The notes under the pieces: model-generated | The model's input: the letters and a program-made list of their open reading frames with translations, nothing else | The model's database searches: none | What the model was told of the DNA's origin: nothing | In this document: in pieces, positions 1-39,633 of the stretch | Numbering within the stretch: the first letter of the stretch is position 1 | Layout of the letters: every line of letters starts with the position of its first letter | Made by a program: the position numbers and the translations under genes | NCBI GenBank assembly: GCA_963676565.1 | Contig: OY781089.1 | Span: 1,952,001-2,016,000 of the forward strand | Reading direction: 5' to 3' | Source: Halarcobacter sp. | Lineage (GTDB): Bacteria; Campylobacterota; Campylobacteria; Campylobacterales; Arcobacteraceae | Length of the DNA stretch: 64,000 nt

Positions 1-1040
1 AAAAGCATATTTAGTGTTGGAATATTTTCAAGTTTTCCTAAAAGAATAGATTTCATATTCTCTTCAAGTAAAGCAAGGGTTAACTTATCAACCCTTAACA
101 TTCTAAGAAGTTGATTTTTCTTTAGTTGGTCTATATATTTTTTCTTCCCAACTATAATTCCTGCTTGGACACTTCCTAAAAGCTTATCTCCTGAAAAGCT
201 CAGAAGAGATGGCTTAGCTTCCATATATTTTAAAACAGATGGTTCACTTTGGTCAAGTCCATAAGGTAAATCAATTATATGACCACTTCCCATATCATAG
301 TAATCAATCACATCATGTTCTTTTGCCACCTCTATAATCTCTTTAAATGAAACCTCTGAAGAGAAACCTTCAATTGAATAGTTTGATTTATGTACTTTCA
401 TTAACATTGAAGTGTTTTCATTTATTGCATTAATATAGTCTTTTAGATGTGTTTTATTTGTTGTTCCAATCTCTTTGAGTGTTGCGCCACTGCTACCCAT
501 AACATCAGGAACTCTAAAACTACCACCTATTTCAACTAGTTCACCACGACTAACAACAACCTCTTTGTTTTTTGCAAAGGTATTTAGTATCAAAAAAACT
601 GCACTTGCATTGTTATTTACAATTAATACATCTTCACACCCAAGTAATTTTTTTACAACAGTTGAGATATGAGAATACCTTTCTCCTCTTTTTCCTAATT
701 CTAAGTTATATTCTAAGTTATTATAAGAAGTTGCTATTTGTTTAACAGCATCAAAAGTTTTACCATCAATTAAACTTCTACCTAAGTTTGTATGAACAAT
801 AACTCCTGTTGCATTGATTACTTTTTGAAGCGAAGGTTTTGTAATCTCTTCATATTTACTTATTACTTCTTGAATAAGTTTAGTTTCATCTATTTTTTCA
901 ATATTTTCTTTTAAGATATTATCTCTTAGATTATTGATAACATTTTTTGCAATTGATAATATTAGAGGTTTTGACATCTCTTCAAAAGCTTTGTTTGAGA
1001 CAAACTTGTCTACCTTTGGAATTGATTTCAGTAAATCCAT
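1..1040 (-). CDS. selA: L-seryl-tRNA(Sec) selenium transferase (selenocysteine synthase), 3' end runs off the window
   Basis: Not in the ORF track. Manual minus-strand translation from ATG at 1040 gives MDLLKSIPKVDKF...VINATGVIVHTNLGRS...NNNASAVFL...VSRGELVEIGGSFRVPDVM...KVHKSNY...DMGSG...SFSGDKLLGSVQAG (PLP lysine motif). Lies next to tRNA-Sec. Confidence 0.95.
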   Translation of the reverse strand, partial: MDLLKSIPKVDKFVSNKAFEEMSKPLILSIAKNVINNLRDNILKENIEKIDETKLIQEVISKYEEITKPSLQKVINATGVIVHTNLGRSLIDGKTFDAVKQIATSYNNLEYNLELGKRGERYSHISTVVKKLLGCEDVLIVNNNASAVFLILNTFAKNKEVVVSRGELVEIGGSFRVPDVMGSSGATLKEIGTTNKTHLKDYINAINENTSMLMKVHKSNYSIEGFSSEVSFKEIIEVAKEHDVIDYYDMGSGHIIDLPYGLDQSEPSVLKYMEAKPSLLSFSGDKLLGSVQAGIIVGKKKYIDQLKKNQLLRMLRVDKLTLALLEENMKSILLGKLENIPTLNML

Positions 1041-1095: not shown

Positions 1096-1194
1096 GGGGG
1101 GTATGTGACCCTGGTGGGCACCACAGGCTTCAACCCTGATTGGCGGTTTATGTGTATACGCCGCGGTAGGTTCGATTCCTACACCTTCTCGCCA
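1096..1194 (+). tRNA. selC: tRNA-Sec (anticodon UCA)
   Basis: GC-rich island. Anticodon arm CAGG-CTTCAAC-CCTG with TCA at 1130-1132, D loop TGGT, long variable arm, T arm GTAGG-TTCGATT-CCTAC, 3' GCCA. Adjacent to selA. Confidence 0.95.
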
Positions 1195-1424: not shown

Positions 1425-1811
1425 GTGAAAAAAATTTTAGTTGTTGATTATGATAATTATATCTCTTCTTATAATTTTTTAAATAGATTAACAACTTATA
1501 AAATTGAGTATGTAAACTGTTATTCAGAATTTAAATTAAAATTTAAAAATAAAAAATATGATTTATGTATTTTAAGTATTGAAGATAACATAGAAAAAGA
1601 CTTTCTTGTATATGATATTTTAGCTTTAGACAAGTATCAAAATATCTTACAATTAGTAAGATCTGACTCTCAGTGTTTTTTTGATAAAGATTGTAAAAGC
1701 TGCGAAAAATATAATATTAAAACTATATTTAGTGATAACGAAGAAAAAATTATAAAGTATATAATAAGCTTTGAAACTTCACTATGTGAGTTTACAAAGC
1801 TTAATATTTAG
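1425..1811 (+). CDS. Atypical single-domain receiver (CheY-like) protein
   Basis: KKILVVDYD start and YDLCILS where the phosphoacceptor Asp is normally found; GTG start with AAGGG RBS. Confidence 0.55.
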   Translation: MKKILVVDYDNYISSYNFLNRLTTYKIEYVNCYSEFKLKFKNKKYDLCILSIEDNIEKDFLVYDILALDKYQNILQLVRSDSQCFFDKDCKSCEKYNIKTIFSDNEEKIIKYIISFETSLCEFTKLNI

Positions 1812-3100
1812 AACTCTTTTATAACAACTTTATTTCTACCTGTATTTTTTGCATTGTATAAAGCTTCATCTGCTCTTTTTATACTATCTTTTATATCTTC
1901 GTTTAAAGAGTGAATAGTTCCACCACAAGAACAAGTTAATTTTATATCATTAGTAAAAGTTGAATTTTCAATATTTTTTCTTAATTTCTCAAGGCTTATT
2001 TCTAAATCGTTATAATTTTTTATCTTTAAGATAAATATAAACTCTTCTCCGCCCCATCTAATAAGATAATCATCCATTCTAGAATATTTTTTTATTATTT
2101 TTACAAAATCGATTAAAACATCATCTCCCACATCATGTCCGTAGGTATCATTGATATTTTTAAAAAAGTCGATATCTAAAATAGCAATACCAAAATTATA
2201 GGTTTCATCCACAAATTTTGATATTAGTTTTCCATAATTATCCTCAAAATACTCTCTGTTAAATGCACCAGTTAATTTATCATGAATAGTTTTATCTTTA
2301 AGTTGAAGTTGTTTTAAAAATGTTTCACTAATATCTGTAAAAGTTAATACTATTGTCTCTTCGTGTTGTGCAATAGTGACTTTAAAAGCTTTTATATTCA
2401 TAGTTTTATGACATAAAATAGATACTATTCTCTCTGACTCAGTTAAGCTTTTTAAACTTTCAATCCAGTTTTCATTTTCATTTACTTTTCCTAAATGGAA
2501 GTAGTTTTCGTTTTCTATAAAGCTTTTTTCAATAGAAGTGTATTCTTTTTTTAATTCATCTAACTTTTCACATGCGTAAAAGTCTAATAGTGTTTTATTA
2601 GCAAATGTGATTTCTAAATTTTTATTATATAAAGCTATCATTGTTGCTTGTGTATTTAAAATCATATGTAAAAAGTCATTTTGCTTTGAGATCTTTTCTT
2701 GAAGTTTTTCTACTTTTCTTTTGATATTTAAAACTTCAAGAGTTTTTTCTAAAACATCCTCTAATATATCTAAATCAATAGGTTTAATAATATACCTATC
2801 TACTTTATATTTAATTGATTCTAGTAAGTATTGGGTGTCATTATGGGCAGAACAAACAATAATAGGGATAGCCTTATTTTTTTCTCTAATTGTCTTGATT
2901 AATTCTAAACCATCAAGATTTGGCATTCGAATATCAGTTAAAATTATGTCAACTTTTTTCTTTTCATATATATTTAATGCCTCTTGTCCATCTTTAGCCA
3001 CATAAACACAATTAAAATAATCTTCTAATACAGAGCTTAACATCTGTGATACTAGTTGGTCATCCTCTGCGTATAAAATTGAAAGTTGAGACTGTTTCAT
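1808..3100 (-). CDS. Response regulator-diguanylate cyclase (REC-PAS-like-GGDEF)
   Basis: ILYAEDD...DIILTDIRMP...KP receiver; HDKLTG, DIDFFK and RWGGEEF cyclase motifs. Confidence 0.9.
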   Translation of the reverse strand: MKQSQLSILYAEDDQLVSQMLSSVLEDYFNCVYVAKDGQEALNIYEKKKVDIILTDIRMPNLDGLELIKTIREKNKAIPIIVCSAHNDTQYLLESIKYKVDRYIIKPIDLDILEDVLEKTLEVLNIKRKVEKLQEKISKQNDFLHMILNTQATMIALYNKNLEITFANKTLLDFYACEKLDELKKEYTSIEKSFIENENYFHLGKVNENENWIESLKSLTESERIVSILCHKTMNIKAFKVTIAQHEETIVLTFTDISETFLKQLQLKDKTIHDKLTGAFNREYFEDNYGKLISKFVDETYNFGIAILDIDFFKNINDTYGHDVGDDVLIDFVKIIKKYSRMDDYLIRWGGEEFIFILKIKNYNDLEISLEKLRKNIENSTFTNDIKLTCSCGGTIHSLNEDIKDSIKRADEALYNAKNTGRNKVVIKEF

Positions 3101-6100
3101 TTTTCATCCTTGTTTTCTAGAGGAATTTCGATTGTAAAAACTGTAATATTATCTTGTACTTTAACATTTATTTTTCCTGATATAGAATCTTCTATTATTA
3201 ATTTTGACATATATAATCCTAATCCTGTACCATTTTTTTCCTCTTTTGTAGAAAAGTATGGTTCAAAAATATTTTCTATTATATTTTGAGGTATTCCCCC
3301 AGCATTATCTTCAATTTTAATTATTAGCTTTTCATTTTCTAATAAATTATATATTTTTATATAAAAGTTTGGATTCTCTTTATTTAATGCTTCTATACTA
3401 TTATTAAGCATAGTTAATAAAACTTGTAACAATTCATTTTTAAAAGTATATATTTTTAGTTTTTGTAAATTATTATATTCAATAATAAGATTATCAACTC
3501 TATTACTTATAAGAACTTTCAAACTTCTATAAAATTCTTCTAATAAAAAAAACTCTTTTTTCTTATCTGGTTTATAAAAATTACAAAAATCATCTATAGT
3601 TTGTGATAGGTGTTTAATAATATCATTTGTTGTATTTTTGTAAAAAATAAATTCATCTTTTTGAGCTACACTAGGCTCTACTTTTCTAATGAACATTTGA
3701 GTTAAAACAGATAATTGATTTAAAGGTTGTCTCCATTGGTGTGCTATCATATTTAACATTTCACCTTGAAGTGCCAATTTACTTTGTTTTTGTAGTAAAA
3801 ATGCCTGTTGTATTCTCTCTTTTTCATTTAAAACTTTTTCTGTAACATCTTGGATTGTTGCTATTGTTTTTATTGGTTTATTGTTAATATCGTGAATTAT
3901 TTTCCAATAAAGTATCATATATTTAACTTTTTTAGTTGGTGTTACTATTCTTAATTCAGTATTATGTTCTTTGTCAGTGTTATAAGAGTTGAAAAGTTTT
4001 TCCCTAAACTCTTCTTTTTCATCAGGATGAATAAATTTAAACAAGATATCTCTACTTATTTTTGGATAATCTTTTTGAGAAATTTCAAAAATATCATAAA
4101 TAGAATCATCTATCTCTTCATAATAGTCTTTAGATAAATCATTTACAAAGGAACTAATTTTTGCCATTTTACGGGCTTGTTTTAAACTATCTGTTAGTTG
4201 CTTTTCTTTTTCTCTTTTTTTATCAAGTATTTTTATATATCTAAATTGAAGAAGGGCAATAATAATCAATAATATAAATAAAACATACCATAACCATTCA
4301 TAGCTTTTCTCAATTACATATTTAGATATTCTGTAATTTGATGCGAAATTATTTAACTCTTCTTTAGAAAAATTACTTATAGTTTTATCAATTGATGAGT
4401 GTAAAAGAGGGTATTTATTATTTACCAAAATTGCACCATTTGCCTTTAAGCTATCAAAAATATCATCAATCTTAAATTTATCAGGTCCATATTTTCTTAT
4501 TATTTCGTCAGCAGTATATGTTGTAAGAATAAAATGAGATTTTGAATCTTTTTTTATTATGTTCATAATCTCATCAATATTTGAATTAACAATTACTTTT
4601 GCTTTAGGATATCTTTCTAGAAATTGACTTTTAAATATTTTATCTTTTACATAAAATGTATGATTATCTAACTGGCTTAAATTTGAAATATATGGATTAT
4701 TTATAGACCCAACTGAAACATAAAACTGATTAAGTATAGGTTTTGTAAACTTAAAATTTTTAAATCCTGTATAGGTGTTTTTTATAATTGAAATGAGATC
4801 ACATCTATTTTTATTTATATTTTCTTCAAACTCTTTTAGGCTATTTGAGGCTATGGGAGTAAACTTAATATTTAGTTTTTTTGATATCTCATCATAAATT
4901 TGACCAGAAATACCAATTAGTTTACTATCTTCAACTCCATCTATTGGATAGTGTTTATATCTTGAACATACTGTAAACTCATTTTTTGTTTTTAAAAAAT
5001 CTATCTCTTCTTTTGTTAGCTGATTATTTTTATCTTTTTGTGAATCATCTCCCAACCATTTTCTTAAAATTGTATTTTTTTCTTCTAAACTTAAGGAGTT
5101 AATACTTTTATTTATAATTGATTGAAGTATTTTGTTATTTGGTTCAACAGCTGCAATTGTATTTGGGGAGAACTCTTTTATTGTATGACTTGAATGGATA
5201 TCTTTAATTCCATACTTCGCTAGAATATGTTTATCCCTGTGAAAAGTGATTACTGCATCAACCTTTCTATTCTCAAGTAGAAAAAAAGTTTCTAAGGTTG
5301 TTTTTTGACCTCTAATTTCTATTTTATCTTTATATTTTTCAAAGGAGTTTTTTAAAGACAAAATATTTTGGTTGTAAGCAACTTTTTTCCCATATAAATC
5401 TTTTATTGAATCTATTTTGAAGGAATTTGAATCTTTAGTAAATATACTATATGAGGACCTTGATAAAGGTTCTGCTTCAAGTAAGTTTTCTTTTTTTGCA
5501 ATATTTTTATTAATTGCAGGTATTACATCTATATTTCCATTTTTTAAATCATTGATTATCTCTTTCCATGATTTGTCTATAAATTCAACTTCAAACCCAA
5601 GGTTTTTACTTAAGGTTTTATAGGTATCTATAATTATTCCATTTAAATTTCCACTACTATCTTTAAAAAAAAGTGGTTCAAATACAGATGAGTGACCCAC
5701 TTTAATAATTGGATTTTCTTTTAAATATTTAATTTCTTCATCAGTAAAAAGATTGTTATACTTATCTATTTGGGTATCATCAGAAATGTTCATATTCCAC
5801 TTTAGTCTTAACTCTTTTAAAGTTTCTTCTGAAATTGTTTTTAAACCCTTTTCAAAGATACTAATTGCCTCGGGGTATTCTTTTATAATACCTATAAACA
5901 CTGGAATTTGTTTGTGATATAAATTTGTATCATGAACTGCTGGTAAAGATTTTTTTGACAAGAGATAATTTACACCATTGACTGTTGGAATAATATCTAT
6001 TAAACCATTAGATAATTTTTCATAACCATCAGCTAAATTATTAATGTAAACAATATTTTTTATGTTTAGTTTATTAATAATATTTTGATGAGTTATTTGA

Positions 6101-6540
6101 TTTTTTTCTATACCTATAGTAAGGTTTTTTAAATCACTATTAGTGAAGTTATTTTTATTTTTGTAATTTGTAGATAAAGAATATTCAATAATTGTATAGG
6201 GCGATGAAAAGTTTAAAAAATCTTCTCTTTGAGGTGTTTTTACAATATTGATAAGACCATCAATTTTTTTATTTTTTACTTGCTCTTGTATTTTAGTCCA
6301 GTCTCCAACAACTAATTGAAAGTTTGCTCCTGTTGCTTTATTAATAAGTTCAAGTATATCTGCATCAACTCCAGTTATTGTTCCATTTTCATTAACAATA
6401 TTTGAAGGTTCCCATCCTGCTCCCGTACCAAGTGTAATTGTATTATGAGATTTTAAAAAGTTTTTTTCTTCTAATGTAAGTTCTATATTACTTGAAAGTA
6501 AAGAAATCGAAAAAAAAATCAAATAAAGAAAAAGTTTCAA
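3097..6540 (-). CDS. BvgS/EvgS-like sensor histidine kinase (signal peptide, three periplasmic-binding-protein domains, TM, PAS, HisKA/HATPase)
   Basis: Three repeats beginning L/FTxEExxF/YLK; IAHQWRQPL H-box; DNAGG, FEPYFSTK and GTGLGL boxes; overlaps the downstream regulator by 4 bp. Confidence 0.9.
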   Translation of the reverse strand: MKLFLYLIFFSISLLSSNIELTLEEKNFLKSHNTITLGTGAGWEPSNIVNENGTITGVDADILELINKATGANFQLVVGDWTKIQEQVKNKKIDGLINIVKTPQREDFLNFSSPYTIIEYSLSTNYKNKNNFTNSDLKNLTIGIEKNQITHQNIINKLNIKNIVYINNLADGYEKLSNGLIDIIPTVNGVNYLLSKKSLPAVHDTNLYHKQIPVFIGIIKEYPEAISIFEKGLKTISEETLKELRLKWNMNISDDTQIDKYNNLFTDEEIKYLKENPIIKVGHSSVFEPLFFKDSSGNLNGIIIDTYKTLSKNLGFEVEFIDKSWKEIINDLKNGNIDVIPAINKNIAKKENLLEAEPLSRSSYSIFTKDSNSFKIDSIKDLYGKKVAYNQNILSLKNSFEKYKDKIEIRGQKTTLETFFLLENRKVDAVITFHRDKHILAKYGIKDIHSSHTIKEFSPNTIAAVEPNNKILQSIINKSINSLSLEEKNTILRKWLGDDSQKDKNNQLTKEEIDFLKTKNEFTVCSRYKHYPIDGVEDSKLIGISGQIYDEISKKLNIKFTPIASNSLKEFEENINKNRCDLISIIKNTYTGFKNFKFTKPILNQFYVSVGSINNPYISNLSQLDNHTFYVKDKIFKSQFLERYPKAKVIVNSNIDEIMNIIKKDSKSHFILTTYTADEIIRKYGPDKFKIDDIFDSLKANGAILVNNKYPLLHSSIDKTISNFSKEELNNFASNYRISKYVIEKSYEWLWYVLFILLIIIALLQFRYIKILDKKREKEKQLTDSLKQARKMAKISSFVNDLSKDYYEEIDDSIYDIFEISQKDYPKISRDILFKFIHPDEKEEFREKLFNSYNTDKEHNTELRIVTPTKKVKYMILYWKIIHDINNKPIKTIATIQDVTEKVLNEKERIQQAFLLQKQSKLALQGEMLNMIAHQWRQPLNQLSVLTQMFIRKVEPSVAQKDEFIFYKNTTNDIIKHLSQTIDDFCNFYKPDKKKEFFLLEEFYRSLKVLISNRVDNLIIEYNNLQKLKIYTFKNELLQVLLTMLNNSIEALNKENPNFYIKIYNLLENEKLIIKIEDNAGGIPQNIIENIFEPYFSTKEEKNGTGLGLYMSKLIIEDSISGKINVKVQDNITVFTIEIPLENKDEK

Positions 6541-6620: not shown

Positions 6621-7655
6621 TTAATAAATCATAATAGGACTTGCTCCTCTTGGAATAACTTCACCTATAATAGAAGCATAACCAAAACTTAATTCTTCTA
6701 TAACCTTTATATACTCTTTTGCATCTTCTTCTTTCATGGCTATTAATAGACCTCCTGATGTTTGAGCATCACAATATTGTAAATAACAATCATCAGTTGA
6801 ACACATTATTGTAGTTTTATCTTTTAGAAATTGCATGTTCTTTTTTGTACCACCAGGAAAAATTCCTTGATTAGCTAACTCTATAGCTTCATTGATAATT
6901 GGTACTTCTCCACAATGAATTGCAAATGAATTAAAATTATTTGTAGATTCTAAAGCATGACCTAAAAGACCAAACCCAGTCACATCTGTAACTGAACTAA
7001 CATCATAATCTCTTAAAATTTTTGAAGGTAAATAGTTTAAAGCCTCTAAGATTTTTACAGTTTCATTTTTTGTACTTTCATCTAATAAATCTTTTTTTAT
7101 TGCAGTTGTTAGAATACCCATACCAAGAGGTTTAGTTAAAACTAAGACATGTCCAATTTTTGCTGTATTATTTTTATATATTTTTTTAGGATGAACCATT
7201 CCTGTTACAGAAAGACCATAAAACATCTCTGGAACTTCAATTGTGTGACCACCCATTAAAAGCCCTCCACACTCCTGAATCTTTTCATTCCCACCTCTTA
7301 GCATCTCTTTTAAGACTTCTGTCCCGTGATTTTTTCTATCAAAACCAACAATATTTAATGCAGTTTTAACATTTGCACCCATTGCAAAAACATCTGAAAG
7401 TGAATTTGCAGCAGCAATTTTTCCATAAATATAAGGATCGTCAACTACAGGAGTAATAAAATCTAAGGTTTGGACTATTGCTTCTTCATCATTAATTTTA
7501 TACACAGAAGCATCGTCATTGTTTTCAAATCCAACAAGAACACGACCATCACATGGAGATAGGCTAATTATAGATTGTTTTAGGTCTCCCGGACCCATCT
7601 TAGCTGCTCAACCTGCGGCACGAACGAATTTTGTTAGTTTATATTCTTCATTCAT
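6621..7655 (-). CDS. selD: Selenide, water dikinase (selenophosphate synthetase), selenoprotein, Sec16
   Basis: The ORF-track start (7598) is internal. In-frame upstream sequence reads MNEEYKLTKFVRAAG-TGA(7610-7608)-AAKMGPG; DDASVY, DFITP, GGHT and DAQTSGGLL motifs. Confidence 0.95.
7581..7597 (-). promoter_or_regulatory. Bacterial SECIS of selD copy 1
   Basis: UGGGUC-CGGGA-GACCUA hairpin beginning 10 nt after the UGA. Confidence 0.8.
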
Positions 7656-7844
7656 AAATTCTCTTTTAGCTAGTTACTATAAGCTTAAATTATAATATAT
7701 AAAAATATTTTTAATTAAATTAATATTTGATTAAATTTTACAATTAATGTAGTTAAAATTAGATTAATATATTAGTTATACATATAAGCAATAATTTTAT
7801 TTAAGAAATAATTAATTAAAAAAGCAATATAGTTTCATATTATA

Positions 7845-7904
7845 AGCATTGCCTAAGGTTTAGGCTAGACATAAAAAATTCTTTTTTACTTGACTACTTA
7901 TGCT
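7845..7904 (+). promoter_or_regulatory. Conserved leader element copy 1 (hairpin GCCTAA-GGT-TTAGGC inside an AGCAT...ATGCT stem)
   Basis: Sequence and structure shared with copies at 7911, 10243 and 39619. Confidence 0.7.
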
Positions 7905-7910
7905 GTTTAT

Positions 7911-7983
7911 CGTCTAAGGTTTAGACGCACATGATTTAAAGACAGTACTTACAAAAAATATTCTTCTTTTTCTCATGTATTAC
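7911..7983 (+). promoter_or_regulatory. Conserved leader element copy 2 (CGTCTAA-GGT-TTAGACG followed by ACATGA...TCATGT stem)
   Basis: Tandem second copy with compensatory flanks. Confidence 0.65.
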
Positions 7984-8007
7984 AAAAATTATACAAAGGA
8001 AAATAAA

Positions 8008-9330
8008 ATGGGTGTTGCAGAACATAAAAAACTACTTTCAGATATTGGTGTTGATGTTGACAGACATGCTCAAATGATGAGTATGGGATTAGAATCTTAT
8101 GAGGCACAATTTAAGTCTCAAAATAACAGACCTAAGGGTATGGAATACTTTGATTGGTTTATGAGTGAGATTCAAGGTCAAAGAATTGCAGAGATTAATA
8201 AATTAAGAGCAGAAAATAAGCCTGCAGTTGGTACATTTTGTATTTTTGTTCCTGAAGAGATTATTGTAGGTGCTGGTGGGGCATGTTTTGGATTGTGTGG
8301 TGGAAGTCCTGCTACAATTGCCGATGCTGAAACTGAACTTCCTAGAAATATTTGTCCACTAATTAAATCAGCCCATGGTTTTAAACTTCAAAGAACATGC
8401 GCATATACACAAAGTTCAGATTTTATTTATGGCGAGACAACATGTGAAGCTAAGAAAAAAACTTGGGAAATCTTAAACAAACATCATCCTGTACATGTTA
8501 TGAATATCCCACATATGAAAAGGGAAAAAGATCTTAAAATGTGGCAAGAAGAGATTGTTGAATTTAAAGAGCATATAGAAGAAGTTGCAGGGAAAAAACT
8601 AAGTTTAGAAGAGATGATTGAAGGAACAAAAATCATTAATGAAAAAAGAAAAGCAATGCAAAGACTTGATGCTTTAAGGGGAATGGACCCAGATGTTGTT
8701 CCTATCTCTGGTAAAGATGCACTTTTTATTAATCAAATGGGATTTTTAGATGACCCAAAAAGATACACTCAAAAAGTAAATGAATTGTGTGATGAATTGG
8801 AAAAAAGAGTAGAAGAAAAAAATTCTGTGTTTGAAGAAGATACTCCAAGACTTATGGTTTTAGGAACTCCTATTGCTCCACCAAACTGGAAACTTCATAC
8901 TGCTGTTGAAGGTTCAGGTGGTGCTATTATAAATGAAGAATCATGTATCGGTCACAGATATTATAAAGATAATGTTGATTTAGATAGTGTTAAGAGTGAA
9001 GAGGATTTAATGAAACAATTAATGCAAAGATATAGTGCAGTTGATTGTGCTTGCTTTACACCAAATACACCAAGAATTGATAAAATTTTAAAAATGTATG
9101 AAGATAGATGTGCTGATGGAGTTATTTATTATACTTTATCTTTCTGTCATACATATAATGTTGAATCTCATCTAGTAACAGAAGCACTTGAAGCTGCTGG
9201 AATCCCATGTTTAGTTATTGAATCAGATTATTCACCTGAAGATGCAGGTCAAATTAAAACTAGAGTTGAAGCATTTTTAGAGTCAATCTCTTTTAAGAAA
9301 AAAGCAAAAAACTTTAAAAATAAAGACTAA
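8008..9330 (+). CDS. Double-cubane [8Fe-9S] cluster-type anaerobic reductase (2-hydroxyacyl-CoA dehydratase family, DCCP-like)
   Basis: GTFCIFVPEE, GLCGG, LPRNICPLIKS, GETTCEAKKK, EESCIG, CACFTPN, FCHTY and IESDYS motifs. Start moved to 8008 because of the AAGGA RBS. Paired with an activator gene. Confidence 0.8.
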   Translation: MGVAEHKKLLSDIGVDVDRHAQMMSMGLESYEAQFKSQNNRPKGMEYFDWFMSEIQGQRIAEINKLRAENKPAVGTFCIFVPEEIIVGAGGACFGLCGGSPATIADAETELPRNICPLIKSAHGFKLQRTCAYTQSSDFIYGETTCEAKKKTWEILNKHHPVHVMNIPHMKREKDLKMWQEEIVEFKEHIEEVAGKKLSLEEMIEGTKIINEKRKAMQRLDALRGMDPDVVPISGKDALFINQMGFLDDPKRYTQKVNELCDELEKRVEEKNSVFEEDTPRLMVLGTPIAPPNWKLHTAVEGSGGAIINEESCIGHRYYKDNVDLDSVKSEEDLMKQLMQRYSAVDCACFTPNTPRIDKILKMYEDRCADGVIYYTLSFCHTYNVESHLVTEALEAAGIPCLVIESDYSPEDAGQIKTRVEAFLESISFKKKAKNFKNKD

Positions 9331-9332
9331 AT

Positions 9333-10094
9333 ATGTTTTGGGGAGTTGACGTTGGTTCCACATATACTAAAATATGTGGAATTGATGAACAAAAACAGAT
9401 TATTGATACAATAGTTATTCCAACAATTGTAAATCAAGATGAGATAGTAAAAGATTACTTAAGTAATAAAAATGTTGAGATGTTAGTTTCAACTGGATAT
9501 GGAAGGCATATGATTGAAGACACCTTTTCATGTCCAGTAATTTCAGAAATAAAAGCCCATGCCAAAGGTGCATACTATTTTGCCCAAGAATCTCAAATGG
9601 TAATTGATTTAGGTGGTCAAGATAGCAAAGTTATTATGTTAGATGGAAATGGCGGTTTTGTAGATTTTAAAATGAATGATAAATGTGCCGCTGGAACTGG
9701 AAAATTTTTAGAAATAGCTTCAAGTAGAATGGGACTTACTCTTGAAGAGTTTTCAAAAATTGGCTTTGAAGCCAATAAAGAACTAAGTATCTCAAGCATG
9801 TGTGCAGTTTTTGCAGAATCAGAAGTGATATCTTTAATTGCAAAAAAGGAGAGTGCCGCAAATATTTGTTATGCTGTTCATGATTCCATTGCCTCAAGAC
9901 TTGCCTCAATGGCAAGAAAATTTGCTATCAAAAGTGATGTAATTTTATTTACAGGAGGAGGGGCATTAAATGGTTTTTTACTTCATCTTCTATCAAAAAA
10001 ATTAGAAAAAAATGTAATTAGTGTTGGTTATCCTCAATTAACAGGGGCTATAGGTGCTGCTTTATCTGGTTTTGAAGTTTGTAAAGAACTGTAA
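9333..10094 (+). CDS. ATP-dependent activator (acyl-CoA dehydratase activase / DCCP-R, ASKHA ATPase with [4Fe-4S])
   Basis: GVDVGST, STGYGR, DLGGQDSK, MNDKCAAGTG and SMCAVFAESE motifs. Confidence 0.9.
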   Translation: MFWGVDVGSTYTKICGIDEQKQIIDTIVIPTIVNQDEIVKDYLSNKNVEMLVSTGYGRHMIEDTFSCPVISEIKAHAKGAYYFAQESQMVIDLGGQDSKVIMLDGNGGFVDFKMNDKCAAGTGKFLEIASSRMGLTLEEFSKIGFEANKELSISSMCAVFAESEVISLIAKKESAANICYAVHDSIASRLASMARKFAIKSDVILFTGGGALNGFLLHLLSKKLEKNVISVGYPQLTGAIGAALSGFEVCKEL

Positions 10095-10164
10095 GAAAAA
10101 AAGTTAATTTTGTTCATTAAATAACAAAGAATATATTAAACTAACTTAAATCATTATTTTTAAC

Positions 10165-10182
10165 GGTAAATTTTTTTTTACC
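10165..10182. promoter_or_regulatory. Palindromic operator GGTAAA-N6-TTTACC
   Basis: Perfect copy; also at 19750 and 27292. Confidence 0.55.
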
Positions 10183-10235
10183 TTTAAGAAAAGATTTATA
10201 TTTAATAGTTTAGTATTACATTTAATATTTAAAAA

Positions 10236-10304
10236 AAGCATCAACCTAAGGTTTAGGTTTGGACATAATTGATATGCGTGAAATTATTATGACTACACAT
10301 GCTT
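10236..10304 (+). promoter_or_regulatory. Conserved leader element copy 3 (AAGCAT / AACCTAA-GGT-TTAGGTT / CATAAT..ATTATG / ACTAC / ATGCTT)
   Basis: Most complete three-stem copy; ends about 10 nt before the GGAG RBS. Confidence 0.7.
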
Positions 10305-10324
10305 CAATACACTTGGAGTAATAA

Positions 10325-11419
10325 ATGAACAGAAGAACTTTCTTAAAAAACACAACAATATTGGCTGCAACTTCTACAGTTATACCTAACTTAGTATTTG
10401 CTAATGAAAATAAAAATCCTTTTGGTATCAAAGAGGGTGTTAGAAAATTTACGATTAACAACAATTTTAAACTTGAATCATCAAAAGAAAAAGCTCAAAT
10501 CTGGATTCCAGTTCCATTAAGTTCTAATTATCAAGAATTAGTTGATATCTCTTATTCTGGAAACTATGAAAAAGCAGAAATCGTAGAAAATGAATACAAT
10601 ACAAAAGTTTTATATGCAACTTGGAAAACTGAAGAAAAAGAACCAACAATTGATGTAAAATTTGAGGTAATGACAAAACAAACTTTTGCAGATTTATCAA
10701 AAGCTAAAAATGACGAAAATTATTCAACAAAAATTAAACAATATCTTGAGCCAACAGCTCATATCCCTGTAAATGACAAACTTAAAGAGTTTACTGCACA
10801 AATTATAAAAGATGCAAAAACTCCTTTAGAAAAAGCTCAAGCTATTTATGACTGGACAGTAACTACTATGTATAGAGACAACTCAGTTATAGGATGTGGA
10901 GTTGGAGATGCAGGTAAAGCATTAGATGAAAAAATATATGGTGGAAAATGTACAGATATTAGTTCTGTGTTTGTTTGTTTATTAAGAAATGCAAATATCC
11001 CATCAAGAGAAGTATTTGGTATTAGAGCTGGTAAATCAAAAATCTCAAAAGTTTGTGGTAAAGCAGACGAAAAAGGTTTTGCAAATATTACTGGTGGACA
11101 ACATTGTAGAGCAGAGTTTTATGTAAGTGGTCTAGGTTGGGTTCCAGCAGATCCAGCAGATGTTACAAAAGTAAGACTTGGTGAAAAATTAACAAATGAA
11201 TCTCAAAAAACAATTGATACAAAAAACTTTATGTTTGGAAATTGGGAAATGAATTGGGTTGCATTTAACTATGCTAGAGATTTTGTTTTAAATCCAAAAC
11301 CAACTCAATATCCTTTAAATATGTTAGGGTATCCGTATGCTGAAATAGGTGAAGATGCACAAAACTACTATGATGCAAAAACTTTTGCATATAGTTATAC
11401 TTCTCAAGAGAGAGTATGA
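10325..11419 (+). CDS. Tat-exported transglutaminase-like (Cys-His-Asp) protein
   Basis: MNRRTFLK Tat signal; GGKCTD, QHCRAEFY and WVPADPAD triad motifs. Confidence 0.85.
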   Translation: MNRRTFLKNTTILAATSTVIPNLVFANENKNPFGIKEGVRKFTINNNFKLESSKEKAQIWIPVPLSSNYQELVDISYSGNYEKAEIVENEYNTKVLYATWKTEEKEPTIDVKFEVMTKQTFADLSKAKNDENYSTKIKQYLEPTAHIPVNDKLKEFTAQIIKDAKTPLEKAQAIYDWTVTTMYRDNSVIGCGVGDAGKALDEKIYGGKCTDISSVFVCLLRNANIPSREVFGIRAGKSKISKVCGKADEKGFANITGGQHCRAEFYVSGLGWVPADPADVTKVRLGEKLTNESQKTIDTKNFMFGNWEMNWVAFNYARDFVLNPKPTQYPLNMLGYPYAEIGEDAQNYYDAKTFAYSYTSQERV

Positions 11420-11745
11420 AAAAAAAGGTAAATTTACCTATTATTGGTGCGGTTTTTACCGCACTATTATCAACACTATGTTGTTTACCAGCATTTTTAT
11501 TTATTTTCTTTGGTATTTCAGGTGGAGTTTTAACTTATTTTACAACACTTGAATATATAAGAATCCCAATGGCTGTTTTAACGGTTGTTTTATTTATCTA
11601 TGGAATTAGAAAGCTAAATAAAAAAATAAAATGTGAATGTACAAAGGCTGAAAAACTTAAAAATTATAGTTTTGTAATATTGTCATTTCTTTTAGTTTTA
11701 TCTATACTTTTATATCCTGAGATAATTCCAATGTTTATGGAGTAG
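11416..11745 (+). CDS. MerT-like small membrane transporter
   Basis: Three hydrophobic segments, STLCCLP in TM1, CxC in the loop; 4-bp overlap with the upstream gene. Confidence 0.75.
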   Translation: MKKKVNLPIIGAVFTALLSTLCCLPAFLFIFFGISGGVLTYFTTLEYIRIPMAVLTVVLFIYGIRKLNKKIKCECTKAEKLKNYSFVILSFLLVLSILLYPEIIPMFME

Positions 11746-11748
11746 TAT

Positions 11749-12030
11749 ATGAAATATTTATTAGTATTAGTTCTTTTCATAAGTTCTATTTTTGCACAAC
11801 AAACTTCAGTTTTTGAAGTTAAAGGTATGCATTGTCCTTTATGTACAACAGCCGTTAAAAAAGCTATTAGAAAACTTGATGGTGTAGAAAAAGTAAGCGC
11901 CCGATTAAACACAAAAAGAGTAACTGTTATACATGATGAAAAAGTTACAATTGACTCAATTTTAAAGGCAATAAAAACTACATCTTATGAAGGTGTAGAA
12001 ATCTCTACAGAAAAAGCTATATCAAAATAA
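11749..12030 (+). CDS. MerP-like periplasmic heavy-metal-associated (HMA) protein
   Basis: Sec-type signal peptide followed by VKGMHCPLC HMA motif. Confidence 0.85.
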   Translation: MKYLLVLVLFISSIFAQQTSVFEVKGMHCPLCTTAVKKAIRKLDGVEKVSARLNTKRVTVIHDEKVTIDSILKAIKTTSYEGVEISTEKAISK

Positions 12031-15715: not shown

Positions 15716-16210
15716 TTAGATGATTATTTCATCTAAATTTTTATTTCTTACATCATCAATTTGAAAACAAGCATTTGCTATTTTTCTTGCTGTATCATCT
15801 TTGTACTTTTCTACAATAGCTTTAATACATTTTAGTTCATCTTTATCAAACATAGAAGGATCAAAATCCTCTTCCATTTTTAAAAAGTTTAGTTCAATAA
15901 ATTTTTCTTTTGTAAGAATTTCAATATCAATAAAGTCAAGCATATCTGTAATAAAATAAAGTCTTTCGTCATCCTCTTCTAAATCTTCACCATTTGCAAT
16001 AATATCAAAGAGTTCAGCTAAAACAAGAGCTTCTGGGTTTCTTTTTTGTTTTATATATTTATCACCAAAGATTTTTTTACCTGTAGTTTTAAAAAAGTCA
16101 TAATCGATTAAAAATAGTAAAATTAGTAATTTTCTATCATTTAAATGTTTTACATCTTCATCAATCATGTAAATTATTGCATTTGCAACTTTTGTTATAT
16201 CAATATTCAA
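15716..16210 (-). CDS. Panacea/SocA (DUF4065)-like domain protein
   Basis: KVANAIIY...KLLILLFLIDY...GKKIFGDKY pattern typical of DUF4065 N-termini; no toxin gene adjacent. Confidence 0.6.
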   Translation of the reverse strand: MNIDITKVANAIIYMIDEDVKHLNDRKLLILLFLIDYDFFKTTGKKIFGDKYIKQKRNPEALVLAELFDIIANGEDLEEDDERLYFITDMLDFIDIEILTKEKFIELNFLKMEEDFDPSMFDKDELKCIKAIVEKYKDDTARKIANACFQIDDVRNKNLDEIII

Positions 16211-16219: not shown

Positions 16220-16900
16220 TTAAATTAAATCTAATGATTCTTCATTAAATTTGTATGTTTTATGGGCAACCTTTGTTAAAATCTTTTTTTCTGCCAATTC
16301 TTTAAAAAGCTTAATCAACGTAGGTTTAGAAATTGAGATTTTATCCATAATATCTGAATATGAGGTTACAAGCTCATTGTTACTGTCTAAATTTGAAATA
16401 ACATATTTTATAATTTCAACTTGCTTACTATCTGTAACTGCTGATATTGTTTTTATTACATTAATATTTTTTTGCATCTCATGGGATTGAACAATTGGAA
16501 ATAAAATATCATGCAAGGTATTTAGTAATTCTTTTATATTTATCGGTTTTACAATATAGTTTTCAACTTTTAGTTTTATAGCATCTAAAAGATATTTTGT
16601 ATCTGTATGGGCCGTTGTTAAGATAGTTGGTATATTTATATCTTTTTGTTTTATATCCCTTAAAAAGTCAATTCCATTTTCATTTTCTAATAAAATATCT
16701 GAAATTATAACATCAACTTTTTTATTTTCTAAAACTTCATGTGCTTCTTCTGATGTATTTACAGCATAAACATTTGCAACAAAATCATCTAAAATATCTT
16801 TAGTATGAGTTAGAAGAGATTTGTCATCTTCTAAATACAATATATTAAAGGTTGACAAGATATTAAGGTTTCGCTCTATAGTCATCACTTTGTCCTTCAT
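16220..16900 (-). CDS. Response regulator with C-terminal winged HTH
   Basis: ILYLEDD, DVIISDI and KP receiver; ISKPTLIKLFKEL HTH. Confidence 0.88.
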   Translation of the reverse strand: MKDKVMTIERNLNILSTFNILYLEDDKSLLTHTKDILDDFVANVYAVNTSEEAHEVLENKKVDVIISDILLENENGIDFLRDIKQKDINIPTILTTAHTDTKYLLDAIKLKVENYIVKPINIKELLNTLHDILFPIVQSHEMQKNINVIKTISAVTDSKQVEIIKYVISNLDSNNELVTSYSDIMDKISISKPTLIKLFKELAEKKILTKVAHKTYKFNEESLDLI

Positions 16901-18485
16901 TTTTATTATCTAATGGAATATCCACAATAAAAAGTGCTCCATATTCTAGTTTCTCACTATTTATTTTATTGTAAACATTCTTACACTTTATATTACCATT
17001 CATATGTTTTTCAATAATTTGTTTAGACATATAAAGCCCAATTCCAGTTCCTGCACTTTTATATTTGGTTGTAAAGTATGGTTCAAAGATATGTGGAAGT
17101 ATTTTTTCATCTACTCCACCAGCATTATCATATGTAAGAATTCTTGCTTTTTGTCTATACTCTTTAACAACAATCTTAATAGCTTTTTCCTTATCAAGAT
17201 TTTTTAAAGCATCTTTTGAGTTTGAAATCATATTTAAAACTACATGGGATAATTCATTATAGTATCCATAAATATTTAAGTCATTCATGATGATAATATT
17301 TAATTTAATATTCTCTTTTTCAAGTATATATTTAGATAAATCCGCTGCATGTAAAACACAATCTTTTACTGAAAACTTAACTTTATCTTTATTTGGACTA
17401 AAGAAATTTTGAAAGTCATCTAAGGTGTTTGACATATTTTCTGCAAGAAGTACAGCATCTTTAGTCTTTTGTTCAACAAATTCAAATGATAGCTTTCCAA
17501 ATTCCATTTTTGTCTGAAATGATTGGATAATCATCATTAGTGAACCTAAAGGTTGTCTCCATTGGTGGGCAATATTTCCTAGCATTTCACCTAAACTTGC
17601 AAGTTTTGATTGCTGGAACATAATTAAGTCTTTTTTCCTTGAGTTTGCAACTTCTTTTTTTATTTTTATTTCAAGATAATCATTAAGTTCTTGTAACTCT
17701 TTTGTCTTTTCATTTACTGCATCTTCAAGGTTAAAGTGTAATTTTCTAAAGTTATTGATTAATAAAACTGATAAAATAATTGAAAATAAAAATACAAAAA
17801 TAATAGAATAGATTAAAATAGTAGTTAATAGATTAAAGGTTTTTTGAGTCTCTCTTTTTTCTGTTACTGCTAGATTTAAATCATAGTTTGTAAGGTTTGT
17901 AATATATACATTTACTGAATTTATCTCAAAGTAAAGTTTATCAATAAAAAATATAGCCTCAACAAAGTTGCCCCTTTGAAGAAGTTGAACTATTCTATTA
18001 ATATCTTTATGCAAATCTGAGATTTTTTCATTTATATTAAAAATCAAATTACTTTGTAAAATTTTTTCATTGTCATCTTCTTTGTTTATCTCAAAAAAAT
18101 CATTAATAAAATTAGTAATAAAAGATTTCTCATATTTTTTGTCAATAGTTGCTTTTTTATAGTTGTTCCAACTTTTGTTAATAAGTTGTTGCGCTAATGA
18201 GATAATATCTTTTGCTTGATAAATGGTGATATTTTTTTGTTGAATTTCATAAAATGTATCATAAATATTGATTTTATAGATATCTTTAATATTTTCTAAT
18301 TCAATTATTGGCTTTGTTCTTTTTTCAAATAGGGTATCAAAATCACTTTTCATTGAGTAAACTGATATTTGTGATAAAGCAATAATAGATATCATACCAC
18401 CTGTTATAATAAACAGTAAAATAGAACTTTTATATCTAAATGACAAATTCTCATAATAATGTAGTGTTTTTTTAATCATCTTCAT
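16863..18485 (-). CDS. Sensor histidine kinase (two TMs, four-helix-bundle-like periplasmic domain)
   Basis: IAHQWRQPL, DNAGG and GTGIGL motifs. Confidence 0.9.
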   Translation of the reverse strand: MKMIKKTLHYYENLSFRYKSSILLFIITGGMISIIALSQISVYSMKSDFDTLFEKRTKPIIELENIKDIYKINIYDTFYEIQQKNITIYQAKDIISLAQQLINKSWNNYKKATIDKKYEKSFITNFINDFFEINKEDDNEKILQSNLIFNINEKISDLHKDINRIVQLLQRGNFVEAIFFIDKLYFEINSVNVYITNLTNYDLNLAVTEKRETQKTFNLLTTILIYSIIFVFLFSIILSVLLINNFRKLHFNLEDAVNEKTKELQELNDYLEIKIKKEVANSRKKDLIMFQQSKLASLGEMLGNIAHQWRQPLGSLMMIIQSFQTKMEFGKLSFEFVEQKTKDAVLLAENMSNTLDDFQNFFSPNKDKVKFSVKDCVLHAADLSKYILEKENIKLNIIIMNDLNIYGYYNELSHVVLNMISNSKDALKNLDKEKAIKIVVKEYRQKARILTYDNAGGVDEKILPHIFEPYFTTKYKSAGTGIGLYMSKQIIEKHMNGNIKCKNVYNKINSEKLEYGALFIVDIPLDNKNEGQSDDYRAKP

Positions 18486-19620
18486 TTATCTTTTTAAAAG
18501 TTGAATCTTCGTATTTAAATAAATAAACATTGTTTGATAGTTGATCTTTTTTATGGTCAAGTTTAATACCTCTTAACATCTCATTTGGAAGTTTATTCCA
18601 TTCTTTTAAGAAAGCACTTCTAGTTAATGTACCTTTTACATTTTTAATTGATTCAACAACACTTTTCGCAACAAGAAAGGCTTCCAGGGAGATAAAACCT
18701 AATGATTCTTTAGGATAATATCTTCTCATCATATATTTATACTCCCTAACAATTTCAATTTTAAAATTATCAAAACTTGGAACTACTTGAGAAAAAATTA
18801 CATTTTTTGTTTCATACTTTAGCTCTTTTACAATAGCACTTGCATCACCAAAGGAGATATTACAAAAAATTGAATTTTCTAATAAAGGGTCTAACTTGGC
18901 TTTTTTTATAAATAATGCATTTGCTTTATATGCACCCACCATAATAATAGCTTCAGGGTTTGAATCTCTAATTTCACTAAATGCATGCTTTATTGATAAG
19001 GTATTTCTTTTATACATACCCTCACCACTTAAAGTTAAACCTCTATTTCTAAGAGATTTTATAGTTGAAACAAAACCCTCTTCACCATAATCATCATTTT
19101 GATAAAAAACAGCAAATCTTTTTATATTTTTTTTAGTATTTAAATACTCAATTATTCTATCAATCTCTTCATAATAAGAAGCTCTAAAGTTTACAATGTT
19201 TTGTTTATTTTTATCCCTTAAAAAAGAAGCCCCAGTAAAAGGAGCTATAAATGGTATAGAGTTGTTTTCTATAATAGGTAATATTTTTTTTACTGTAGGG
19301 GTACCAACATAACCATAAAATGCAAATAAATCTTTTCTCTTTAATAGTTTATTTGTATTTTCAATTGTTAGATTTGGCTCATATTTGTCATCTAGTGAAA
19401 CTAAAGATATTTTTTTCTTATTTGGTAAAATACTTTTTTCATTAACATATTTAAAGTAGGCATTTGTACCAATCTCTACATTATGTCCCCAGTCTTTCAT
19501 AATACCAGTTTTAGGTAATGAAGCCCCAAGTATTATATTGTTGCTATAATATTTTTGATCATTGAAAAAATAAACAAGAGAGGTAAAAATAATAAAAAAT
19601 GCAATTAAAATTTTTTTCAA
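18472..19620 (-). CDS. Periplasmic binding protein (type I, LivJ-like), probable accessory sensor for the adjacent kinase
   Basis: LDDKYEP, GYVGTPT, APFTGA, NFRASY and YQNDDYG motifs; no permease or ATPase nearby. Confidence 0.85.
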   Translation of the reverse strand: MKKILIAFFIIFTSLVYFFNDQKYYSNNIILGASLPKTGIMKDWGHNVEIGTNAYFKYVNEKSILPNKKKISLVSLDDKYEPNLTIENTNKLLKRKDLFAFYGYVGTPTVKKILPIIENNSIPFIAPFTGASFLRDKNKQNIVNFRASYYEEIDRIIEYLNTKKNIKRFAVFYQNDDYGEEGFVSTIKSLRNRGLTLSGEGMYKRNTLSIKHAFSEIRDSNPEAIIMVGAYKANALFIKKAKLDPLLENSIFCNISFGDASAIVKELKYETKNVIFSQVVPSFDNFKIEIVREYKYMMRRYYPKESLGFISLEAFLVAKSVVESIKNVKGTLTRSAFLKEWNKLPNEMLRGIKLDHKKDQLSNNVYLFKYEDSTFKKINEDD

Positions 19621-19749: not shown

Positions 19750-19767
19750 GGTAAAATATTTTTTACC
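19750..19767. promoter_or_regulatory. Palindromic operator GGTAAA-N6-TTTACC
   Basis: TGGTAAAATATTTTTTACCA, 15 nt before the ferredoxin start. Confidence 0.55.
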
Positions 19768-27121: not shown

Positions 27122-27309
27122 GGTAAAGTAAAATTTAGTTTTTCATTGTTAATAACTTTTATTACCTTTAGGTAAATAAAAATTTACATATTTTAGTTAT
27201 TTATTTTCATTTAAAAATTTTCTAATGCTCGTAAATATGGATGTTTTTCAGAAATGATTAATCTATATTTAAAGTTATATGTTTAAAATTAGGTAAATAA
27301 AAATTTACC
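27122..27309. promoter_or_regulatory. Three GGTAAA-N6-TTTAC-type sites (27122, 27171, 27292)
   Basis: One perfect and two near-perfect copies upstream of FDH operon 2. Confidence 0.55.
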
Positions 27310-33728: not shown

Positions 33729-33732
33729 TACA

Positions 33733-34152
33733 ATGGGAAAAATGCAAAAAGAGATTAATTTAGATGAAACTCAAAAAGAATTACTTCTTAGCAATTTAGA
33801 CGAAGATGGGAAACTATCTTGTCTAAAGGCTTTTAAAGTAGCAAGATTAATTGGTGTAGAGCCAATTGATATGTCTGATGCTTGTAAGAGTGAAAACATA
33901 AAAATTACAAATTGTGAATTAGGTGTATTTGGAAAAATACAATTTCATGACGCCGAAGATGCAATCTATAATAAAATAGCAAAAAATTTCACACAAGATA
34001 AAGATGTTACCTGTAAGATTTTATGGGAATTAGCAAAGGAATCAAGCTTAAGAAGAGTAGGTTCAACAGTTAAATTTACTGATGTAGAAGTAACAAATTG
34101 CCAACTTGGGTGTTTTAGGACAAGAAAGGGACATCGTGAAATCAAAAATTAA
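33733..34152 (+). CDS. Hypothetical protein with two tandem Cys-containing repeats (C..A/L.....TNCxLGxF)
   Basis: LSCLKAF...ITNCELGVF and VTCKILW...VTNCQLGCF; overlaps the modE-like gene. Confidence 0.7.
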   Translation: MGKMQKEINLDETQKELLLSNLDEDGKLSCLKAFKVARLIGVEPIDMSDACKSENIKITNCELGVFGKIQFHDAEDAIYNKIAKNFTQDKDVTCKILWELAKESSLRRVGSTVKFTDVEVTNCQLGCFRTRKGHREIKN

Positions 34153-35473: not shown

Positions 35474-35482
35474 GAGAATATT

Positions 35483-37579: not shown

Positions 37580-37592
37580 GGACTTTTAGAGA

Positions 37593-39518: not shown

Positions 39519-39578
39519 TATAGCTCTTGCTATACTGTTTTTTAATGGCATTTAGTTAAAATTAATGCCATTAAAAAA
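39517..39578 (+). terminator. Tandem hairpins ending the fdhD-tup operon
   Basis: AGTATAGC-TCTT-GCTATACT + T-run, then TTTTTTAATGGCATT...AATGCCATTAAAAAA. Confidence 0.65.
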
Positions 39579-39618: not shown

Positions 39619-39633
39619 ACCTAAGGTTTAGGT
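39619..39633 (+). promoter_or_regulatory. Conserved leader element copy 4 (ACCTAA-GGT-TTAGGT)
   Basis: Same 11-nt core, upstream of yedF-selD2. Confidence 0.65.

Follow-up and report, generated by a model that had tools for sequence, protein, structure and literature searches.

A previously undescribed folded leader RNA of marine and sediment bacteria at selenium-gene messages, probably switching translation by selenium status

The stretch of DNA analyzed here (the window) comprises 64,000 nucleotides (nt) of Halarcobacter sp. (assembly GCA_963676565.1, contig OY781089.1, positions 1,952,001 to 2,016,000 of the forward strand). It is a selenium and formate-dehydrogenase island (Table 1), in which an initial annotation, made from the letters alone, had proposed a selenium-linked cis-regulatory RNA: a covarying hairpin within a three-stem leader, marked by an 11-mer (CTAAGGTTTAG) at four sites. 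Comparative sequence evidence from relatives bears out a sense, covarying and selenium-linked cis-regulatory RNA and supports its description as a previously undescribed folded leader RNA of ~65 nt, found at the selenium-gene messages of marine and sediment bacteria, which probably switches translation by selenium status. The 11-mer occurs at 7853-7863, 7914-7924, 10246-10256 and 39621-39631, 4/4 on the plus strand, against 0.06 expected matches, and four matches were reached in 0/100 shuffles; these are also its only copies in the whole genome (3,340,668 bp; four forward, zero reverse). The number and strand of the copies had been given correctly, and their coordinates 2 to 3 nt too low. As the initial annotation had read, the flanks of the four hairpins differ yet pair (GC/GC, CGT/ACG, AAC/GTT and AC/GT), and profile scans (Pfam and NCBIfam) returned the downstream operons that it had named. 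The three-stem leader applies to copies 1 and 3, which upon pairwise alignment share AAGCAU...AUGCU, GACAUAA, a variable third stem and UGACUAC, and for each of which, folded alone, the minimum-free-energy (MFE) structure is a three-way junction of a closing helix (P1), the conserved hairpin (P2) and a third helix (P3); copies 2 and 4 are hairpin-only.

Copy 1 sits in the leader of the double-cubane reductase/activase operon, and homologous leaders are present in four other genomes. Such double-cubane leaders are of a tandem type, in which the full junction is followed by a second hairpin module, here carrying copy 2; this second module is kept in the leaders of G003, G004, G014 and G022, and G012 has a hairpin-only form. 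Judging from complementarity, UGCUGU (7901-7906) can pair with ACAGUA (7942-7947), in competition with P1 of copy 1. Because both the relatives and the AGGA Shine-Dalgarno site point there, the reductase gene most likely starts at ATG 8008 (MGV...), not at 7975, the start of the longest open reading frame (ORF). Copy 3 precedes the gene for a transglutaminase-like protein with a twin-arginine translocation (Tat) signal and two genes for MerT/MerP-like proteins, the latter giving weak NCBIfam matches to MerT/CopZ selenoprotein and UxxU metal-binding families. Copy 4 stands close to where the yedF-selD2 mRNA is predicted to begin, and its context is shared by no relatives other than the close ones G010 and G014; the probable start of yedF is 39685.

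Table 1. Leader elements, genes and other features of the window (R1, covariance model described in the text; Sec, selenocysteine)
Feature	Position	Strand	Details
Copy 1, three-way junction	7844..7905	+	P1 7844-7849/7900-7905, P2 7851-7865, P3 7868-7894; R1 62.3 bits
Second module, double-cubane leader	7906..8007	+	copy 2 hairpin CGUCUAAGGUUUAGACG 7911-7927, then conserved ACAUGAUUUAAAGACAGUA 7929-7947
Second-module stem ACAUGA/UCAUGU	7929-7934 with 7973-7978	+	MFE fold of leader
Shine-Dalgarno AGGA, double-cubane leader	7997-8000	+	sequence
Double-cubane-cluster anaerobic reductase	8008-9330	+	NF040772, 453.8 bits; Pfam HGD-D
ATP-dependent activase of double-cubane reductase	9333-10094	+	TIGR00241; Pfam BcrAD_BadFG
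Palindrome GTAAA-N6-TTTAC, then TTTAAG -35-like box	10166..10188	+	upstream of copy 3
Copy 3, three-way junction	10236..10304	+	P1 10236-10241/10299-10304, P2 10243-10259, P3 10262-10293, J3/1 10294-10298; R1 73.6 bits
Expression platform of copy 3	10301..10327	+	GCUUCAA (10301-10307)/UUGGAGU (10313-10319); Shine-Dalgarno GGAG 10315-10318
Tat-signal transglutaminase-like protein gene	10325-11419	+	Pfam; start codon at 10325
MerT-like protein gene	11416-11745	+	Pfam
MerP/HMA-like protein gene	11749-12030	+	Pfam
Copy 4, hairpin-only, ACCUAAGGUUUAGGU	39619..39633	+	R1 24.9 bits, E 0.23
yedF	39685-40281	+	TIGR03527, 210.7 bits; Shine-Dalgarno GGAG 39676-39679
selD2	40283-41313	+	in-frame TGA (Sec) 40328-40330
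selD1	6621-7655	-	in-frame TGA (Sec); divergent from copy 1
selA	3-1040	-	
tRNA-Sec	1096-1190		
Two fdh operons with Sec-fdhA	22608-25448 and 28475-31306		
fdhD, ModE-like, moeA	within 32940-36727		
tupABC	36764-39307		

The 11-mer alone is unspecific in relatives (matches in 32 of 61 genomes, with a reversed control giving similar counts), and it is the flanks and the covariance model that confer specificity. Using the flanks of 11-mer matches in relatives, we found 16 distinct leaders of the same architecture and built from them covariance model R1, which detected the element in 47 of the 151 genomes of the same family, spread over 8 of 22 genera; in a scan of the window elements, it did not report copy 2. 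A rebuilt model, R2, was run on a sample of 140 genomes that covered 25 further families of the order, though not Sulfurimonas and Sulfurovaceae, and had 0 hits. When all species genomes were scanned for the exact pattern, 47 loci matched, of which R2 confirmed 38 at 36 bits or more, all of them from Campylobacterota (Arcobacter, Halarcobacter, Poseidonibacter, seven Sulfurimonas and two Sulfurovaceae); the other nine, from other phyla, do not fit R2. Because the model missed a divergent copy that was seen by eye in one genus (L157), these tallies are lower bounds. The supposed absence from Rfam held as well: at the gathering threshold the whole window yields tRNA-Sec alone, scans of 7660-8010 and 10095-10330 against Rfam 15 at E ≤ 10 give chance-level hits only, and an E ≤ 1 scan of the loci of three relatives gives nothing at the elements.

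The genes downstream of the element form a narrow set. Across 65 unique three-way-junction elements, all of them sense, the first gene 3' of the element is one of four types in 65/65 cases, namely, a PhnD-like binding protein of TIGR04553 type from a putative selenate ATP-binding cassette (ABC) transporter (47/65), the Tat transglutaminase-like protein with its MerT/MerP-like genes (12/65), the double-cubane reductase (5/65) or a YedE-like protein (1/65). The TIGR04553 label derives from one binding-protein member that was scanned (365 bits, 'putative selenate ABC transporter'). Outside the family, genome G247 has a TIGR04553 gene without the element, even with the search filters off.

The conserved module is a hairpin of 6 to 7 bp (consensus CCUAAGGUUUAGG, GGN loop) followed 2 to 4 nt later by ACAUAA, and in the commonest form this hairpin serves as the P2 arm in a three-way junction of ~65 nt, closed by P1 (AAGCAU/AUGCUU). 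When RNAalifold was applied to a MAFFT-only alignment of 24 diverse members, with no model fitted, P2 was predicted and 5 of its 6 pairs were compensated. Under the three-helix model, 88.5% of the cells in the 24-member alignment are paired, versus 82.7% in shuffles and 24 to 47% with the partners slid. More specifically, the homologous leaders collected here show compensatory, both-side changes in 13/20 pairs (6/7 in P2, 4/8 in P3 and 3/5 in P1), a number equaled in 0/500 shuffles. P2 variants include CUUAAGGUUUAAG, GCUAAGGUUUAGC and CCAUAGGUUAUGG; its stem is otherwise near-invariant in sequence, and P3 is free to vary in both length and sequence. The P2 loop is mostly GGU, with GGA, GGC, GUU, GGG and AAA variants, and the conserved junction nucleotides are UUGG in J2/3, a GACAUAA/UUAUGAC helix with an A-A mismatch, and UACAUA in J3/1. 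One genome (L040) carries both a main-type CCUAAGGUUUAGG and a selD-type CCUAUGGAAUAGG hairpin. Many P3 loops also contain AUGC(A/G)UG, a duplicate of the P1 3' strand (e.g., window 10272-10278). In 4/21 MFE folds, this duplicate and the P1 5' strand form an alternative P1, a helix that may be part of an OFF state.

The core CCTAA-N3-TTAGG is also an inverted repeat just downstream of a conserved promoter architecture, as would be expected of a DNA operator to which a dimeric repressor binds 3' of the promoter. Such an operator is very unlikely, given that the elements were found in one orientation and with covarying helices, the opposite of homologs in both orientations without covariation: all 65 main-type elements are sense to their gene and invariably have the asymmetric GG on the sense strand, covariation extends to P1 and P3, whose distances vary, different sequences preserve the complementarity to the Shine-Dalgarno site, and two compensated hairpin versions occur within one genome. 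Moreover, a better operator candidate, GTAAA-N6-TTTAC, already lies upstream of the -35 box. GTAAA-N5-9-TTTAC precedes the elements in 48/63 cases, followed by TTYAAG in 41/63 and, 3' of it, by a TATAGT-like box 12 to 20 nt before P1; this promoter-like order suggests that the RNA starts near the transcript 5' end and that a separate transcription-factor site exists, the palindrome probably being its operator. The match to GTAAAN{5,9}TTTACNNTTAAG at 10166-10188 is the only one in the genome, and GTAAAN{5,9}TTTAC has 7 matches in the window versus 1.5 expected. Palindrome sites lie at 1324-1339, 10166-10181, 19751-19766, 27172-27187 and 27293-27308, where they precede both fdh operons, the transglutaminase-like operon and an ORF beside tRNA-Sec. 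The palindrome may serve as operator for a selenium/formate transcription factor. A set of periplasmic-binding-protein, histidine-kinase and response-regulator genes is found at 16220-19620. A sigma-70 promoter scan (12 sites versus 14.9 expected) was uninformative because the DNA is AT-rich.

Downstream of P1, the leaders continue with GCUUCAA(AA), a loop and then (UU)UUGGAGU or UUGAGG, which together form a hairpin (the sequestor) that masks the Shine-Dalgarno site and has GCUU in common with the 3' strand of P1. With GCUU shared, P1 and the sequestor are mutually exclusive and very probably constitute a translational switch. The predicted fold of 10236-10330 contains the sequestor but no longer P1. 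Consistently, among 59 leaders (61 were folded, and two double-cubane rows with no valid Shine-Dalgarno call were excluded), the four-base Shine-Dalgarno core is fully paired in 57 MFE structures and P1 is present in 1; when P1 is enforced, a fully paired core is left in 0 leaders, and in 38 no more than 1 nt of the core is paired. The cost of enforcing P1, over all 61 rows, has a median of ~3.9 kcal/mol. The YedE-class leader carries a different but complementary sequestor pair, CUUUUUAU/AUAAAAAGG. To go by the predicted energies, the default state of the three-way-junction leaders would be OFF, and whatever stabilizes the junction should turn translation ON. The element very probably acts as a cis-acting translational RNA switch of a selenium regulon. 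Two generic hallmarks of riboswitches are found in it: a conserved, covarying structured RNA, as far as the alignments indicate, and, in the folding models, an expression platform exclusive with the putative aptamer.

Variants of the element head selD (19 loci) and DsrE-like genes. The selD-type leaders, some of them identical, carry ..ACAUUAACCUAUGGAAUAGGUGUACAUAAAUGU.., then UACACCU(AU)UCCAUA, a segment complementary to the hairpin loop, the hairpin 3' strand and the junction; the resulting long-range helix covaries (GGUGUA/UACACC versus GGUAUA/UAUACU). When 15 of these leaders were folded, with rough Shine-Dalgarno calls, the hairpin was present in 0/15 MFE structures and the Shine-Dalgarno site was unpaired in 13/15, and enforcing the hairpin paired at least 3 of the 4 Shine-Dalgarno bases in 10/15. 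In these models, the polarity of the selD type looks opposite to that of the main type. The minimal type, at DsrE-like genes, consists of the covarying hairpin and AUACA(U)AAA, with the Shine-Dalgarno site 8 to 12 nt further on, and covarying hairpin-only forms stand directly before ribosome sites (GCUAUGGAAUAGC, CCUAUGGAAUAGG and GCCUAAGUUAUUAGGC). By sequence, all forms share one unit, the hairpin with ACAUAA. DsrE-like genes (~116 amino acids, corresponding to the C-terminal half of YedF) are also divergently paired with element-bearing operons (L162, L164-L167 and L157), and their products may be a further selenium-trafficking component.

These forms bear on the question of what operates the switch, for which the initial annotation had named either SelB binding or a riboswitch-like mechanism. 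If the junction were an aptamer for selenide, selenite, selenophosphate or another selenium metabolite, the leaders would be small-molecule or ion riboswitches in which the ligand closes P1 and so frees the Shine-Dalgarno site, an ON switch. The architecture is classic for such RNAs, with conserved junction nucleotides, a distal P3 that varies and an overlap between P1 and the expression platform; the modeled switching cost of ~4 kcal/mol would be plausible for ligand binding, the regulon comprises the transporter and pathway for one nutrient, and the elements are arranged in tandem before the double-cubane operon. We nevertheless consider a riboswitch rather unlikely, as the functional-looking hairpin-only variants are too small for aptamers, the stem sequence of P2 is invariant, an ON switch for importers would be an unusual logic, and literature searches gave no precedent for RNA recognition of a selenium species.

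The GGA found in hairpin loops and Shine-Dalgarno sites raises the alternative of a target for CsrA, which binds GGA at such places, or a similar general RNA-binding regulator, as many variants have an AUGGAA or AAGGA loop. This is even less probable than a DNA operator: most main-type loops are GGU rather than GGA, CsrA would not require the conservation seen in the stem sequence and in ACAUAA, and the motif occurs only at selenium genes, 4/4 copies in this genome. Least probable of all is a leader peptide or UGA-recoding upstream ORF, to which the AUG within the conserved UUAUGACUAC might point; on the sequences at hand, the frame and stop of the short ORF appear to differ among relatives, some variants seem to have no AUG, and the UGA in UGACUAC of copy 1 has, as read, no in-frame start before it. 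Two further candidates were rejected, namely, a T-box-like tRNA sensor, since the UGA of UGACUAC is lost in many members (UCUCUAC, UUUCAUA) and J2/3 is not a conserved UGGN, and a true selenocysteine insertion sequence (SECIS), since all copies lie in untranslated leaders, not 3' of an in-frame UGA, and a conserved upstream ORF was not found.

Our preferred reading, to which we assign a probability of about 0.5, is that these elements are a new family of cis-acting 5'-leader RNAs that set translation initiation of selenium acquisition and assimilation genes in response to a trans-acting effector. A factor reporting selenium status, most likely a protein, would bind the hairpin module, the leading candidate being SelB, which would recognize the hairpin as a SECIS mimic as it does in the Escherichia coli selAB leader. 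In three-way-junction leaders, binding would stabilize the junction and P1, pull GCUU from the sequestor and turn translation ON; in selD-type leaders, the hairpin would compete with the long-range helix, and once formed it would tend to block the ribosome site (OFF); in minimal leaders, the factor would occupy a hairpin 8 to 12 nt from the Shine-Dalgarno site. Parsimony favors a trans-acting macromolecule because a lone hairpin of 13 to 17 nt is too small for a specific small-molecule pocket, and a near-invariant P2 stem next to a freely varying P3 also argues for a protein, which has roughly even odds of being the effector. SelB in particular is a tentative identification with the odds against it, and a small molecule is about as doubtful. 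In favor of SelB, the GG(U) loop resembles the GGUGU loops of the fdhA SECIS, in which the YGGU reported by the initial annotation was found again (GUCGC[U/C]GGUGUGGCGA), and selB scores above the cut-off in 45/47 element-bearing genomes, the other two being assemblies of 86% and 90% completeness. The fdhA SECIS themselves (23166-23200 and 29034-29068; L168-L189) have an invariant GGUGU loop among 12 distinct sequences across the family, and a stem that shows compensatory change at synonymous sites (GUC..GCG versus GUU..GCA, that is, C-G to U-A). The ACA that follows the SECIS stem was rejected as RNA-constrained: it is an invariant Thr codon in 12/12 fdhA, but ACA is the usual Thr codon there.

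Several observations weigh against this reading or parts of it. Covariation in P1 comes essentially from one divergent sequence, L084 (GUUCA/GAAC). Because the folding energies of the isolated elements are unremarkable (z of -0.95 and -0.29, not significant), the support is entirely comparative. Four RNA runs carrying the species label of a DNA data set that covers the locus yielded 0 reads, a result that does not bear on expression. A bulged U 5' of the upper stem is a defining feature of the SECIS bound by SelB. In the sequences seen, P2 has no bulged U and is a perfect stem of 6 to 7 bp; its triloop has a variable third base (U, A, C or G), as against the SECIS pentaloop GGUGU. Real SECIS stems share no sequence with P2, so that SelB leaves the invariant P2 stem and ACAUAA unexplained. 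Furthermore, the three-way form has a conserved junction that resembles a ligand pocket, opposite predicted polarities (ON for the main type, OFF for selD) would be physiologically awkward under one effector, and 43 of the 88 selB-positive genomes of the family are without the element according to the covariance model. A broader proposal, which we advance tentatively and with somewhat less confidence than the translational reading itself, is that one hairpin module, either a SECIS mimic read by SelB or the core of a selenium-ligand aptamer, wires the whole regulon to selenocysteine supply and is the first RNA sensor of selenium status. Its regulon could then comprise the putative selenate ABC importer, YedE, the transglutaminase-like and MerT/MerP-like proteins, the double-cubane reductase, DsrE-like/YedF proteins and SelD; equally speculative is that the module switches the uptake genes and selD in opposite directions.

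Among the neighboring genes, both selD paralogues have their in-frame TGA near the N-terminus, and both are truncated by automatic ORF calls. The variant hairpin seen in selD leaders of many relatives is absent from the selD1 leader of the window. The interval from selD1 to the tRNA-Sec/selA region contains, at 1808-6540 (minus strand), genes for a GGDEF response regulator and for a large hybrid histidine kinase. In G013 and G033, selD, an antisense tRNA-Sec, selA and selB are contiguous, with selA and selB on the same strand as selD; by this comparison, the 1808-6540 block looks like an insertion. A hairpin in the selA leader (UCAAGGUUGA, window ~1083-1092) was considered as a further variant and rejected, as it is not conserved in either of these two genomes. 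An inverted repeat, AATGGCAT-N13-ATGCCATT, lies at 39542-39570, between the tupC-side terminator and the promoter region of copy 4; it is kept in G010 and, with one change, in G014, and may be another operator or hairpin. A gene for a protein with a SocA/Panacea antitoxin-like domain (15716-16210, minus strand), between a GGDEF gene and the two-component system, has no connection with the element.

The regulation of selenium homeostasis in bacteria is largely unknown. In the parts of these publications that were available, Lin et al. 2015 (PMC5322559) describe the selenium regulatory network as not understood, with only a LysR-type factor predicted; Funkner et al. 2024 (PMC11097638) state that a selenium-specific transporter is known in no organism; and Haft 2022 links double-cubane proteins to SelD only statistically, the accessible text making no mention of RNA. 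Our literature searches turned up no selenium riboswitch or selenium-responsive leader RNA of a similar kind. The screen of Stav 2019 included Arcobacter sp. L; 'selen' does not occur in its main text, nor is there a selenium-gene intergenic region in the 14 rows of its Table S1d, and its PDF supplements may bear on overlapping unnamed Arcobacter motifs. The element is an experimentally tractable handle on selenium sensing and a possible selenium-responsive genetic part. It supplies regulatory evidence, beyond gene neighborhood, that joins the TIGR04553 transporter, the transglutaminase-like/MerT/MerP-like set, the DsrE-like proteins and the double-cubane reductase, an enzyme whose physiological substrate is unknown, in one regulon.

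The element can be set beside four known kinds of RNA. Like the Moco/Wco riboswitch (RF01055), which stands before cofactor- and formate-dehydrogenase-related genes of a shared metabolic neighborhood, it would be a cis-regulatory RNA, but its sequence, structure and gene set are different, and the Rfam scan detected no Moco/Wco riboswitch anywhere in the window. It resembles translational three-way-junction riboswitches (thiM thiamine pyrophosphate and purine types) in its conserved junction, its covarying stems and the competition of the P1 3' strand with the mask of the Shine-Dalgarno site; unlike these, it has no Rfam match, no conserved loop-loop contact and one sequence-invariant stem that recurs alone. 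With bacterial SECIS, such as those of fdhA (GU[C/U]GCC-GGUGU-GGC[G/A]A) and selD in the window, it shares a GG-containing apical loop on a short covarying stem; in contrast to them, the leader hairpin is untranslated, does not lie 3' of an in-frame UGA, and has an AU-rich stem of conserved sequence. The fourth is the SECIS-like element in the selAB leader of E. coli, which, according to the part of the report available, is bound by SelB-GTP-Sec-tRNASec, represses translation and lies 3 nt from the Shine-Dalgarno site (10.64898/2026.03.03.709296). By analogy, both are hairpins in the 5' untranslated region of selenium genes, with a GG(U) loop in most of the elements here, and would act at translation initiation, and the gene context is close to that of selAB in relatives in which the hairpin heads selD, followed by selA and selB on the same strand. 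The differences are that the hairpin here usually lies inside a three-way junction with its own Shine-Dalgarno sequestor, that the minimal variants stand 8 to 12 rather than 3 nt from the Shine-Dalgarno site, and that a triloop with a variable third base, no bulged U, a conserved stem sequence and a 3' ACAUAA take the place of the SECIS features. The genes at which the elements stand suggest that transporters and reductases are controlled as well, not only sel genes; if true, the single E. coli precedent of SECIS mimicry would be extended to a multi-operon regulon, or else the element would represent a new riboswitch class.

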